Shown here: positions 4,405 to 8,170 of the stretch, piece after piece
Layout: the number at the start of each line of letters is the position of its first letter
How positions within the stretch are numbered: the first letter of the stretch is position 1
Assembly: GCA_035473115.1 (NCBI GenBank)
Contig: DATION010000005.1
Coordinates: 86,339-150,338 of the forward strand
Direction: 5' to 3'
DNA from: Candidatus Udaeobacter sp.
GTDB taxonomy: Bacteria > Patescibacteriota > Patescibacteriia > Magasanikbacterales > GWA2-37-8
DNA: 64,000 nt
The notes under the pieces: model-generated
Databases searched by the model: none
What the model was told of the DNA's origin: nothing
The model's input: the letters and a program-made list of their open reading frames with translations, nothing else
Translations under genes and position numbers: made by a program

Positions 4405-4427
4405 CCCCTACCAATTTTTGGCCTGGA

Positions 4428-4456
4428 TTGACAAACAGGCCAAAAAGGAGTATAAT
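4428..4456 (+). promoter_or_regulatory. Perfect consensus sigma70 promoter TTGACA-17-TATAAT whose -35 is embedded in the palindrome ggcctg...caggcc
   Basis: TTGACA at 4428-4433, a 17-nt spacer, TATAAT at 4451-4456. The 6-bp inverted repeat GGCCTG/CAGGCC brackets the -35. Confidence 0.6.
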
Positions 4457-4523
4457 TTTGTATTAGATTAATAGTTACCCACCCCAGATGGTTAGCCAAA
4501 ACGACCCCCTAGGGGAGGTAAAT

Positions 4524-4661
4524 ATGGATAAGGAGATGCGTCGCCTTTTGGCGACTGCACTTGTTGCTATGGCACTAGTGATGGGTATGGCCTTGAGCCA
4601 TTGTGGTGAGAGAAACTATAACCCACACGACCAACGACACGCTACCAAAGGAGGCCAATAA
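4524..4661 (+). CDS. Small (45 aa) secreted or lipoprotein-like peptide
   Basis: GGAGG SD at 4514-4518, 5 nt from the ATG. N-terminal signal-like MRRLLATALVAMALVMGMALSHC with a lipobox-like LSHC. Not in the ORF track because it is under 60 aa. GC-rich. Confidence 0.45.
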   Translation: MDKEMRRLLATALVAMALVMGMALSHCGERNYNPHDQRHATKGGQ

Positions 4662-4774
4662 TGATGAACACCGAGAAAATCGCCCGAGTCGATCGGAACC
4701 CCAACCCTTACAGTATCGCTGGAATAGGAGCGGTCCTGCTCCTGATCGGCATACTGCGCCTGATCGTTGGCTAG
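4661..4774 (+). CDS. Small (37 aa) single-TM peptide, translationally coupled to the upstream micro-ORF (TAATG overlap)
   Basis: GGAGG SD at 4650-4654. Sequence is MMNTEKIARVDRNPNPYSIAGIGAVLLLIGILRLIVG. Its ATG overlaps the stop of the preceding ORF. Confidence 0.45.
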   Translation: MMNTEKIARVDRNPNPYSIAGIGAVLLLIGILRLIVG

Positions 4775-4892
4775 CCTAGCGAACAAAATCGCTGGACTGG
4801 CGCAACAACAAACAGCTCTTTCCCGACCAGCATGCGTGGAAGCGCCCGCTCGACACTTCCACGAACACACAGCCCGCATACAGTTCGAGCCA

Positions 4893-4930
4893 AAACAAAA
4901 AACCCAGATTTATATCGGGGTTTTTTGTTT
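4893..4930. terminator. Bidirectional Rho-independent terminator between convergent genes
   Basis: aaaaaaccc-N12-gggtttttt hairpin flanked by A-run and T-run. Sits between the micro-ORF pair (+) and the 4947..6722 gene (-). Confidence 0.55.
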
Positions 4931-4946
4931 TTATTACCTAGAAAAA

Positions 4947-6722
4947 TTACTCTTCGTACCCCTTAGCAACAAAAGGAAGCATGGCAAGAGTCCTGCGATC
5001 CGGACCGGTTAAAACCCATACTGGTACTAAACGCCCATCAAGCAAAGCTTCCGTAGATTTTTGACCGGGTTTATATAAACTTATCGCTCTCTGTCTCAAT
5101 TCATTAATTTTTCTTGCAACCTTCAAAGGAATATTAGAAACTTTTCCTTCCAAATAAGCATCAAACTCCTGCTCGCTCATACTCATCCAATTTTTTTCTG
5201 CCAAATCAGACCAATCAGCTAATTGCAGTTTTTGCAAAACTAGCGGATCTGGTGAAATTTCAAGCCGTTCAAATAAAATAATCGGGATAGGGTTATTTAC
5301 ATAATCTTCCTTTTTACCACCATATAGCGATTCAACGGCTTTCTTTTCAGTTGCGGACATTCTACCGCCACGACGATTCCCTTGAATCAAACCTTTGGCT
5401 AAATTAATATCTCCGGAAAGATCTGGATTTGCTGGATTAAGAGAAAAAGATCGAGCTCGATCAAACGGCCCTTTTTCACTTAAAGTAACAACTACCACAC
5501 TCTCATCATGCTTCTCATAAGCATACTCCCTTGGCGAACCGTCTTGGTTATAATTATGTAAAAAAGCATTATAAGCATTAGCTAGAAGCAATACTGCTCT
5601 TTGCTCAATCTGTTTTTCTCTTTCTTGATCAGTTAAGCCAACAAGCTCTTTAGAAAAAACCTGTTCTAATTTTTCCTTCACGATAGGCAAAGCTTCTTTG
5701 CTCATTGCTTTTATTTTATTCCAAAAATTGGCAGTGCTATTAACATAATCTGTTTCATAATTAATAGCAAAATAATTTTTTAAAAACAGATCACGAAAAA
5801 CATTATCGGCAAGTTCTTTGGCATAAATTATCTTGCCCTCTTCTACCAAAGAATTGATATTATTTTCAGTAAAACCTTCCGCTGTTACTCTAGGGTCATG
5901 ATCTAAACAATCCGCTTTTTCTAAACCCATATACATGTAGCCGCTGTGGGGATCAAATGATGTTTGCAAAACTACAACTTTTTTTTCTCCGGCATATTTA
6001 TTTCCAACATATTTTTGTAAAGCCACAGCCATATCTCTTTTTCTTCTCACATCATCAGACAATCCTTTGTCAGGAACTGCTCCGCCTTTTTTTTCTTCAG
6101 CTGCTAAATTACGCGCCGCGCAGCCTACGTGACTATCAAGAACCTCACAAACCTCATCCTGTGATTTCAAAACTTCATCAACAACATTGCTTATCTGTCC
6201 GTCTGCCAAAAAAAGACCTTTGCCGTGACGGCGAGGACGAAATTCACTGCTATCACCCGCCGGCATACGTAAAGCGTTTCCGTGTAAACCAGCAAACAAT
6301 TTAGATAGAACACGGCCATCAAGGCATAACAATAACTTTGGTACGCCATAAGGGAATAAACCGGTTTTTGTTTCGATAGCTTCCTGAACCTCGGACGAAG
6401 CAATCTCATCTAAACGATGGTCTCGAGAATAAATGAACTGGCATAACTTAAAATGCAGCATGGCTAATTTTTTATTTTCCTGCTCAGAGTTGTTTTGATC
6501 GCCACGTTCCCTATCAAGATTAGCTACTACACGAACATAGTTTTCTAATTGCTGCTCTAAACCTTCTCCGATTTCTGGTAACTCTAAATTATCAAGAACC
6601 TCAAAGTATGGCTCTTTATTTTTACTGGCAGCGGCTTTGTCTTTCATATATTGATTATCTAAACTAATTGCGTTTAAACCCAAGCTCTTATCATGCAAAT
6701 TATGACCATTTTCTAAAGACAT
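4947..6722 (-). CDS. Hypothetical 591-aa protein with a beta-carbonic-anhydrase-like metal-site motif (C133-L-D135-G-R137 ... H198-V-G-C201)
   Basis: CxDxR and HxxC motifs at beta-CA-like spacing, read from the translation. About 50% GC versus about 37% background. Confidence 0.4.
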   Translation of the reverse strand: MSLENGHNLHDKSLGLNAISLDNQYMKDKAAASKNKEPYFEVLDNLELPEIGEGLEQQLENYVRVVANLDRERGDQNNSEQENKKLAMLHFKLCQFIYSRDHRLDEIASSEVQEAIETKTGLFPYGVPKLLLCLDGRVLSKLFAGLHGNALRMPAGDSSEFRPRRHGKGLFLADGQISNVVDEVLKSQDEVCEVLDSHVGCAARNLAAEEKKGGAVPDKGLSDDVRRKRDMAVALQKYVGNKYAGEKKVVVLQTSFDPHSGYMYMGLEKADCLDHDPRVTAEGFTENNINSLVEEGKIIYAKELADNVFRDLFLKNYFAINYETDYVNSTANFWNKIKAMSKEALPIVKEKLEQVFSKELVGLTDQEREKQIEQRAVLLLANAYNAFLHNYNQDGSPREYAYEKHDESVVVVTLSEKGPFDRARSFSLNPANPDLSGDINLAKGLIQGNRRGGRMSATEKKAVESLYGGKKEDYVNNPIPIILFERLEISPDPLVLQKLQLADWSDLAEKNWMSMSEQEFDAYLEGKVSNIPLKVARKINELRQRAISLYKPGQKSTEALLDGRLVPVWVLTGPDRRTLAMLPFVAKGYEE

Positions 6723-6744
6723 ATTTTAGTGTTTATAATAGGCA

Positions 6745-6773
6745 ATTTTACCTATTACTAAGAAAAAAGTCAA
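6745..6773 (-). promoter_or_regulatory. Candidate promoter TTGACT-17-TAAAAT for the 4947..6722 gene
   Basis: Hexamers on the minus strand immediately upstream of the start codon. Confidence 0.35.
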
Positions 6774-6862
6774 TAAGTTAAAAAGGTGTTTTTTATTAAA
6801 CAAGCCTCATATCAATCACTTGATATGAGGCGGCCGACTGACGAGCTGTAGATACAGCTACA

Positions 6863-7882
6863 CTACTGACACTCCTCGAATCGGTGATCATCAAAACATA
6901 AGACACCGACACACGGATGAAAGAAATCACCCATGCTTGGTAGTTTTTTTCGTATATGCTTCATGGCGAACTCGGCAAGATAACGAGATGTCGAGATGGC
7001 TAAGCCGCGCTGATAAGCATGCCGATAACCAGTTGAAACTAACAATACTCCGCTCCCAACTATCCTACCTTGTTGCCAGTTATCTTCTATGATCTCAGCC
7101 GCCGTTACGATCGCACTATCCAAGTCAGGATCACAAGGTCCGATGACCAAAGCAAAGTTATTATTATTGAGCCAGCTAAAGCCTCGTCCAACGGCGAGAA
7201 CGCGTTCATTATGATGAAGATGAATCGGTTCTTTGCGAGTCTTATGCACATCAGCCATATGCTCCACATTGCCTCGGATGAGAGGCATCAAGTCCTCGCG
7301 CGTTCCTCCGGGGATATTAGGGAGCAACACTGAGAGCCTTCGACGTAAAGCGCTTTCACTTAGCCCTTCACACTCACTAACATCCAGAAAGGAATCGTCG
7401 GCACCATGGATAACCATCTTTTCGTCGTCTGTTTCAAGTCCGACCAAAAGTGTAGAGATAGTACCAGAACAAGCTCTGTCAACTTCAAGTTTAAATTCAA
7501 GAGCGGCCTGCTTGGCTGCTTGAGTATCAAAATTGAAACCAGCACATCCAAGCTCTCTATCACTCTTTGAATAATGATAGGTGATAATCAGAAGAGCTCG
7601 CCTCCCCTTACTCAGTACATAATTGTACCATTCGCTAATGGAACTATTCATCAACGGCCAGCCCAAGCAATATTTACCACCGATATTACGAAAGACCGTG
7701 AACAGACCAAACAGCGCTTTTACCCACCTGGGCAAATTTACCCTGCCATCCATACACATTGTTACTGCAATTTCTGTGGGGAATAACTGACGATACTCAG
7801 CCCGCTGTGGGCTTGTGAGCAAGAACTCCCTTGACCAGGCAAGGTTCATTTGGGTAATCTTTTCAATCAGAACATTGGGCAT
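6863..7882 (-). CDS. Hypothetical 339-aa protein, paralog-like to the 4947..6722 product (C43-M-D45-G-R47 ... H103 ... C113-A-G)
   Basis: Shares the hydrophobic-C-x-D-G-R-V...F/L-x-G-L block with the neighbouring gene. Residue positions closely match beta-CA Cys/Asp/Arg/His numbering. GGAGG SD 7 nt upstream of the ATG. Confidence 0.4.
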   Translation of the reverse strand: MPNVLIEKITQMNLAWSREFLLTSPQRAEYRQLFPTEIAVTMCMDGRVNLPRWVKALFGLFTVFRNIGGKYCLGWPLMNSSISEWYNYVLSKGRRALLIITYHYSKSDRELGCAGFNFDTQAAKQAALEFKLEVDRACSGTISTLLVGLETDDEKMVIHGADDSFLDVSECEGLSESALRRRLSVLLPNIPGGTREDLMPLIRGNVEHMADVHKTRKEPIHLHHNERVLAVGRGFSWLNNNNFALVIGPCDPDLDSAIVTAAEIIEDNWQQGRIVGSGVLLVSTGYRHAYQRGLAISTSRYLAEFAMKHIRKKLPSMGDFFHPCVGVLCFDDHRFEECQ

Positions 7883-7926
7883 GGAAATTCCTCCGATTTG
7901 GATTGCAGAAAAAAATGCTAAACAAT

Positions 7927-7956
7927 ATTATATGCCTATTTAAAGCAAAGAGTCAA
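7927..7956 (-). promoter_or_regulatory. Candidate promoter TTGACT-18-TATAAT for the 6863..7882 gene
   Basis: Hexamers on the minus strand, followed by a GGAGG SD at 7890-7894. Confidence 0.4.
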
Positions 7957-8170
7957 TACTCTCTAAAAAAATATTTAAGAAAATAAAATCACCTGTGCAT
8001 AACTTCTCACTTATCTATTCACAATTACAAAAAAACAATCTATAATAAATAGGTCGAGAGAAAATTTTACAGCAATGCTTGTCTTGTAAAAATTTCTTCC
8101 ATAATTTTTTTCTTTCCTCGCGAGTAGAAAAAAATTATTTTGAACTAAAAAATGAAAGGAGGTGCCAAAT

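Follow-up and report, generated by a model that had tools for sequence, protein, structure and literature searches.

Two adjacent genes in a 64,000-nt stretch of DNA (the window), here called A and B, probably encode independent cytoplasmic zinc carbonic anhydrases of the beta class (beta-CAs) with the architecture of CsoSCA, the carboxysomal enzyme. This reading draws on comparisons of protein sequences and on structural models. CsoSCA has long been held to be a carboxysome speciality, and here two CsoSCA-type genes adjoin in a reduced, non-autotrophic genome. An initial annotation, made from the letters of the sequence, had described two minus-strand open reading frames (ORFs) of 591 and 339 amino acids (aa) that share a C-x-D-G-R block and carry a beta-CA-like metal site. 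Both ORFs are present, and the residue numbers given for A (C133/D135/R137, H198-x2-C201) and for B (C43/D45/R47, H103-x9-C113) are correct. The two genes are as follows, and gene statistics given below refer to the 39 genes of the window.

4947 to 6722, minus strand: gene A, 591 aa, a member of an unnamed family of CsoSCA-like two-domain proteins with a beta-CA fold, found mostly in Patescibacteria.
6863 to 7882, minus strand: gene B, 339 aa, a putative compact, non-carboxysomal beta-CA of the CsoSCA type, similar to CsoSCA2.

The protein encoded by gene B scores above the gathering threshold of the Pfam model CsoSCA_cat (PF20686; 30.9 bits versus 21.5), and its sequence directly matches the solved CsoSCA of PDB entry 2FGY (E 1.6e-6). 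When a profile of 51 B homologues is used instead, the match to 2FGY reaches an E value of 6.2e-15, in an alignment that places “kCmDGRv” over “pCaDGRl” and “TYHyS..GCaG” over “vYHfS..GCaa”. With a 28-residue tag offset applied, this alignment equates residues C43, D45, R47, H103, and C113 of B with C173, D175, R177, H242, and C253 of HnCsoSCA. The H-x9-C spacing of B, which the initial annotation had likened to the H-x10-C arrangement of CsoSCA, is indeed in register with that of 2FGY. In a cryo-electron microscopy structure of CsoSCA, the zinc ligands are C173, H242, and C253 (PMC12646314). The predicted zinc ligands of B are C43, H103, and C113, wherein D45 and R47 would form the catalytic dyad, and the residue-by-residue alignment to the solved enzyme suggests that these five residues meet in one pocket. 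All five are invariant in the alignment of the 51 B-type sequences. At the position three residues before the second cysteine, a nonligand histidine is the commonest residue among the aligned B-type sequences, and the B protein of the window carries Glu110 there.

The AlphaFold2 model of B (predicted local distance difference test [pLDDT] 94, predicted template modeling score [pTM] 0.92) is matched to CsoSCA by Foldseek with an E value of 6e-15 and template modeling (TM) scores of 0.72 to 0.79. Its layout combines an N-terminal beta-CA domain, predicted to be active, with a degenerate C-terminal beta-CA domain in which H224 and E226 are invariant. The N-terminus holds only two short helices (~35 residues), and a long N-terminal domain is lacking. 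These features correspond to those of CsoSCA2, a group of compact CsoSCA homologues that occurs widely beyond carboxysome loci (Sutter, Kerfeld, Scott et al. 2022, PMC9164163). Members of this group, which has been described and is uncharacterized, possess a two-helix N-terminus of ~40 residues, one active and one defunct domain, and all catalytic residues (PMC9164163). B resembles them in size, in its two-helix N-terminus, in the active-plus-defunct layout, in its catalytic residues, and in its location outside a cso operon. By similarity and by these features, B fits as a new member of CsoSCA2. The initial annotation recognized neither protein as belonging to a named family, which no longer applies to B and still applies to A, for which there is no family model.

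B is a divergent allele, with its nearest database relative being no more than 49% identical. Homologues were found in Patescibacteria, Sulfuricaulis, and Marinobacter. The Sulfuricaulis and Marinobacter proteins, which are 38% and 36% identical to B, respectively, are annotated as carboxysome shell carbonic anhydrases. The score of B against TIGR02701, the equivalog model for carboxysomal CsoSCA, is 37.4 bits, which is far under the cut-off of 241. The Pfam Pro_CA model (PF00484) matches neither A nor B at E ≤ 1.

Protein A carries its own version of the site. Residues C133, D135, R137, H198, and C201 are invariant in 36 aligned A-type sequences, and the C-D-R-H-C set is kept in 165 of 166 representatives of the A family, down to ~25% identity. 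Invariance of the site residues in both sets (36 A-type and 51 B-type homologues) means that the motifs did not arise by chance. The predicted zinc ligands of A are C133, H198, and C201, with the ordinary H-x2-C spacing, and D135/R137 is the predicted dyad. The AlphaFold2 model of A (pLDDT 91.1, pTM 0.88) has the alpha/beta fold of beta-CAs, and it includes a helical N-terminal region (residues ~16–122), additional helical insertions, and a C-terminal domain that has degenerated. In this last domain H405 and E407 are invariant and no cysteine is conserved; therefore, only the first domain can bind a catalytic metal, as in CsoSCA. The metal-site residues proposed in the initial annotation are present in both proteins, each of which has a beta-CA fold and an intact Cys/Asp/Arg...His/Cys set.

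The A family is separate and unnamed, and it is distantly related to CsoSCA and CsoSCA2. Nearly all source-named members among the 37 close homologues of A carry Patescibacteria lineage labels. An exhaustive profile search recovered 220 clusters at 50% identity, of which 179 have E ≤ 1e-30. A name for these ~220 clusters, which so far have none, would allow “hypothetical protein” calls to be corrected across many Patescibacteria genomes. Our literature search found no paper on the A family or on the operon association described below.

A and B are distant homologues of each other. When the two families are compared by hhalign, they align over 272 columns with 97.1% probability (E 5.9e-11), and the alignment is in register at three blocks, namely C-x-D-G-R, G-C-A, and, toward the C-terminus, H-x-E. 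A recent duplication that gave rise to both genes was considered and rejected, as the aligned columns are only ~21% identical. A lacks the 7-residue segment that bears the ligand histidine in CsoSCA and CsoSCA2, and its own histidine lies three residues before the cysteine. Thus, A is a CsoSCA-like two-domain protein with the ordinary histidine spacing of beta-CAs and no family model, which makes it a newly described variant. Its family provides an outgroup with ordinary histidine spacing for tracing the origin of CsoSCA. In a bolder reading, which we consider improbable, A would have retained the ancestral H-x2-C site and be a possible intermediate between ordinary beta-CAs and the carboxysomal enzyme.

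A and B were also compared with known systems. In carboxysomal CsoSCA (2FGY, 8THM, 9G4T; TIGR02701), H242...C253 is in register with H103...C113 of B. Unlike the genes for that enzyme, A and B have neither a cso operon nor RuBisCO or shell genes in their vicinity; B is without the long N-terminal domain, and A uses H-x2-C without the 7-residue segment. RuBisCO, carboxysome shell, and DabB-like genes are absent among the annotated ORFs of the 64-kb window. A carboxysomal role was rejected, given the lack of partner genes and of a model match. A differs from CsoSCA2 in its length of 591 aa, in its histidine spacing, and in having no match to PF20686; TIGR02701 likewise does not match it. Unlike canonical beta-CAs (E. 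coli Can, Porphyridium 1DDZ; PF00484), A keeps metal ligands only in its first domain and has ~250 extra residues that are mostly helical. DabA (PF10070), the beta-CA-like subunit of the DAB CO2 uptake pump, is similar in concept: it has a beta-CA-like zinc site within a large protein, and its genes accompany an ion-translocating membrane complex, which parallels the relation of the A family to atp operons. The possibility of a DabA-type protein, which the initial annotation had listed for comparison, was dismissed because PF10070 matches neither A nor B and no DabB/NuoL-like partner is present in any examined locus.

From the homology, fold, site conservation, and gene neighborhoods that are observed for A and B, we infer zinc binding, catalytic activity, and a physiological role. 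In the mechanism we propose, one chain would mimic the beta-CA dimer by joining an active domain to a degenerate copy. B would bind zinc via C43, H103, and C113 and use D45/R47 as its catalytic pair, whereas A would keep the ordinary beta-CA spacing (C133...H198-x2-C201 with D135/R137) and add helical regions. The reaction would be CO2 + H2O <-> HCO3- + H+, and it may help a fermentative cell of the Patescibacteria type to balance bicarbonate/CO2 and pH. As read from the sequences, no signal peptide or membrane helix is evident in either protein.

Neighbor clustering of 45 non-redundant A-type loci revealed that A lies in or beside the operon for the F1Fo ATP synthase in nine loci, at five positions. 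Of the 31 loci that have 1.5 kb or more of upstream sequence, 8 show the association. The arrangements are as follows.

atpC-B-A: loci L001 and L006, by Pfam annotation.
atpC-A: loci L024, L026, and L033.
atpH-atpA-A-atpG-atpD-atpC (delta-alpha-A-gamma-beta-epsilon): locus L038, 4147 to 10454, Pfam-verified, with 18- and 14-nt gaps.
atpG-A: locus L054.
atpBEFH-A: locus L022.
A divergent from atpD: locus L030.

The A protein encoded within the operon of L038 is 30% identical to A of the window over 518 residues. Because there are several distinct insertion points, a functional tie is favored over the inheritance of one arrangement, and the repeated placement of A-family genes in the atp operons of relatives points to a role tied to ATP synthase. 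This finding concerns the A family and not the locus of the window directly, since no atp genes are located near A there. A stronger proposal, wherein the A family is a dedicated carbonic anhydrase partner of the F1Fo ATPase in Patescibacteria, is based on gene order and seems to us improbable. Patescibacteria lack a respiratory chain, and their F1Fo complex is considered to work as an ATP-driven proton pump. With co-expression, a carbonic anhydrase might make bicarbonate beside F1 and supply or buffer protons. Oxyanions, to which bicarbonate belongs, relieve the Mg-ADP inhibition of ATP hydrolysis (PMC8039183), and the activating effect of carbonate/bicarbonate on hydrolysis has long been recognized (PMC9583940, citing Lodeyro 2001). 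Oxyanion activation is a possible rationale for the link. The repeated insertion into ATP synthase operons offers a testable lead on the management of protons, CO2, and energy in these bacteria.

Several observations weigh against the reading of A and B as carbonic anhydrases of CsoSCA architecture, and most of them bear on A. This protein has no significant match in Pfam, NCBIfam, or the sequences of the PDB, even when its family profile is used, and all carbonic anhydrase sequence models fail on it. The connection of A to CsoSCA is made only by profile–profile and fold comparison. Likewise, the convergence of its five residues on one site is suggested by the alignment of the A and B profiles together with the fold match. 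No study of the activity or metal content of CsoSCA2 or A-family proteins was found in a literature search. Moreover, no atp genes occur within 14 kb of A in the window, and most A loci have no atp link. A might instead be another enzyme with a beta-CA fold, for example one that hydrolyzes carbonyl sulfide or carbon disulfide, or a regulator that binds CO2/bicarbonate and has kept the metal site but does not turn over CO2. We consider this unlikely.

The initial annotation had also suggested that A and B form a CO2/bicarbonate-handling pair. Beta-CAs function as oligomers, the two genes are adjacent on the same strand in the window, and the order B then A recurs after atpC in L001 and L006, which would be consistent with a dedicated two-component system acting as a hetero-complex or a coupled pathway. 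These two loci share an identical gene order after atpC, and their B genes are 35 to 36% identical to B of the window. However, among the 45 A loci a B-type gene adjoins A in only three, namely the window, L001, and L006 (B within 6–8 kb). The closest relative of the window has A without B, in other relatives the same slot is filled by B and A is missing, and B-type genes stand alone in three further contexts: Marinobacter, a Candidatus Moranbacteria genome, and another lineage. In addition, the two genes have separate promoters and an intervening hairpin. The A–B pair is thus not a conserved system, as A usually stands alone and so do B-type genes, and we regard a dedicated pair as very unlikely. 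The preferred interpretation remains that of two independent enzymes.

Other genes of carbon metabolism lie close to members of the two families. Genes for pyruvate:ferredoxin oxidoreductase are found within a few kb of A in L015 (4511–7106) and of B in L009 (101–2709), and a malic enzyme gene is near the B-type gene of L010 (1–215). Both enzymes release CO2, and as weak hints these neighbors fit a role in the handling of metabolic CO2.

We also considered the origin of the region. The initial annotation had described the segment from 4405 to 7960 as a guanine–cytosine (GC)-rich island of ~50% against a background of ~37%, and as apparently foreign. The GC contrast was not reproduced: the segment has 41.6% GC and the window 40.0%. 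Gene A, at 38.1% GC (z = −0.3 versus 37 other genes), has native codon usage. In the closest relative (L013/L014/L017), the whole neighborhood is common at 72 to 92% protein identity, with a shared order in which the genes for citryl-CoA synthetase and lyase are followed by a PHP-like gene, A, and then a P-type ATPase gene in convergent orientation. The A protein of this relative is in the same place and is 77% identical to that of the window. A therefore looks native, and the claim of foreign origin is not supported for it.

Gene B presents a different picture. With 46.0% GC (z = +2.7) and a z score of +3.6 for GC at third codon positions (GC3), B ranks at the top of the 39 genes, and it is preceded by a Shine-Dalgarno site, a rarity in this genome. 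Between the PHP-like and P-type ATPase genes lies a slot whose genes differ from one relative to the next. The closest relative has no B and carries an unrelated 188-aa gene there, whereas in L067 and L068 a B-type gene occupies this slot and A is absent. The B genes of L067, L068, and other close relatives are 74 to 94% identical to one another, but that of the window is only 46 to 49% identical to all of them even though the flanking genes are 71 to 89% identical to those of the window (48% for B versus 71–89% for the flanks). These features lend some support to horizontal acquisition, and this support applies to B only. The B-type genes of L067 and L068 are also GC-richer than their surroundings and have Shine-Dalgarno-like sites, which look like family traits; because the relatives share both features, neither proves a recent import of B. 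No integrase, transposase, flanking repeats, or tRNA target was seen at the boundaries. Together with the native composition and synteny of A, these observations make acquisition of the entire 4405 to 7960 segment as an island doubtful. B looks like an outlier allele in a variable slot, having arisen through replacement from another lineage or through fast divergence.

The 188-aa gene of the closest relative (L013, 4224–4790) has its own consensus promoter and Shine-Dalgarno site and belongs to a family for which 10 members were found. An invariant C-A-D-G-D-Q and H-A-P-C-G-K in this family are reminiscent of a beta-CA site, a lead that is unproven. The family profile showed no relation to A, B, or any PDB sequence.

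Sequence elements that might control the expression of B and A are as follows, where the promoter-like sites conform to a sigma-70-like consensus.

7956 to 7927, minus strand: promoter-like site of B, TTGACT-18-TATAAT, matching 11 of 12 consensus positions.
7894 to 7890, minus strand: Shine-Dalgarno sequence GGAGG, 7 nt before the ATG of B.
6831 to 6804, minus strand: 12-bp hairpin followed by the T-rich tail TTGTTTAATA, terminator-like, between the stop codon of B and the promoter of A.
6773 to 6745, minus strand: promoter-like site of A, TTGACT-17-TAAAAT, matching 10 of 12 consensus positions.
4893 to 4932: hairpin CCCAGAT / ATCGGGG with an A-run on one side and a T-run on the other, directly 3′ of the stop codon of A.

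Both promoters named in the initial annotation, written there as TTGACT-17/18-TA(T/A)AAT, correspond to these promoter-like sites. The region contains 10 promoter-like sites, which is not above the shuffle expectation of 8.7 ± 3.6, and only their quality and position favor the two listed. The GGAGG that had been called unusual is so: it precedes 2 of the 39 genes, and any 4-mer Shine-Dalgarno core in the right place occurs in three, B among them. The ATG of A has no Shine-Dalgarno site. Because a terminator-like hairpin lies between B and A and each has its own promoter, the two genes are probably separate transcription units. The hairpin at 4893 to 4932 was read from the sequence, with the scan tool making no call there, and it could be a two-way terminator that serves A on the minus strand and a small-ORF cassette on the plus strand.

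This neighboring cassette is separate from A and B and comprises the following elements.

4405 to 4892, plus strand: the cassette, with two small ORFs.
4428 to 4456, plus strand: promoter TTGACA-17-TATAAT, a perfect consensus.
4524 (ATG) to 4661 (end), plus strand: first ORF, 45 aa, signal-peptide-like, preceded by GGGGAGG.
4661 to 4774, plus strand: second ORF, 37 aa, with one hydrophobic helix, preceded by AAAGGAGG.

Both ORFs have strong Shine-Dalgarno sites, and neither is counted among the 39 genes. Positions 4405 to 4946 have 48.9% GC and are the sole part of the segment that approaches 50%. The cassette has no Rfam match. In the closest relative, a 137-aa ORF and an AstE/AspA-like gene take its place.

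The source metagenome-assembled genome is labeled “Candidatus Udaeobacter sp.” (Verrucomicrobiota) at NCBI (protein records P0001 and P0102). Close relatives of the flanking genes all lead to Patescibacteria, and the pilin family PF18895 of type IV secretion systems, as well as the scarcity of Shine-Dalgarno sites, also indicates this group. Because gene content and all flanking-gene relatives agree in this way, the Verrucomicrobiota bin label appears to be wrong. The same doubt applies to the label of L012, which is given as Gammaproteobacteria.

Other features of the window were observed as well. On the minus strand, positions 9564 to 12350 encode a set for two-step ATP-dependent citrate cleavage, which includes a citryl-CoA lyase (NF004869, 290.6 bits versus a cut-off of 212) and succinyl-CoA-synthetase-like alpha and beta subunits, the latter with the citrate-binding domain of ATP-citrate lyase. 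This set is kept in the relatives L013 and L067 and is unusual in a bacterium with so small a genome. A stretch of ~55% GC at 18573 to 20377, located directly 3′ of the 5S rRNA gene, contains long ORFs that overlap and lie on both strands, among them one of 215 aa at 18748 to 19395 (minus strand). No Rfam match lies within this stretch, which may be another inserted element. A 151-aa ORF at 55204 to 55659 has 54% GC and 60% GC3, far over the window mean, and Rfam gave no match in 55000 to 56150. The 23S–5S rRNA pair occupies 20378 to 23642 with no adjoining 16S gene, and the 23S match spans 3039 nt versus a model of 2925 positions, such that the gene may carry insertions. Finally, Rfam gives a 102-nt tRNA match at 51355 to 51456 that ARAGORN did not call, and this tRNA may contain an intron or be atypical in some other way.

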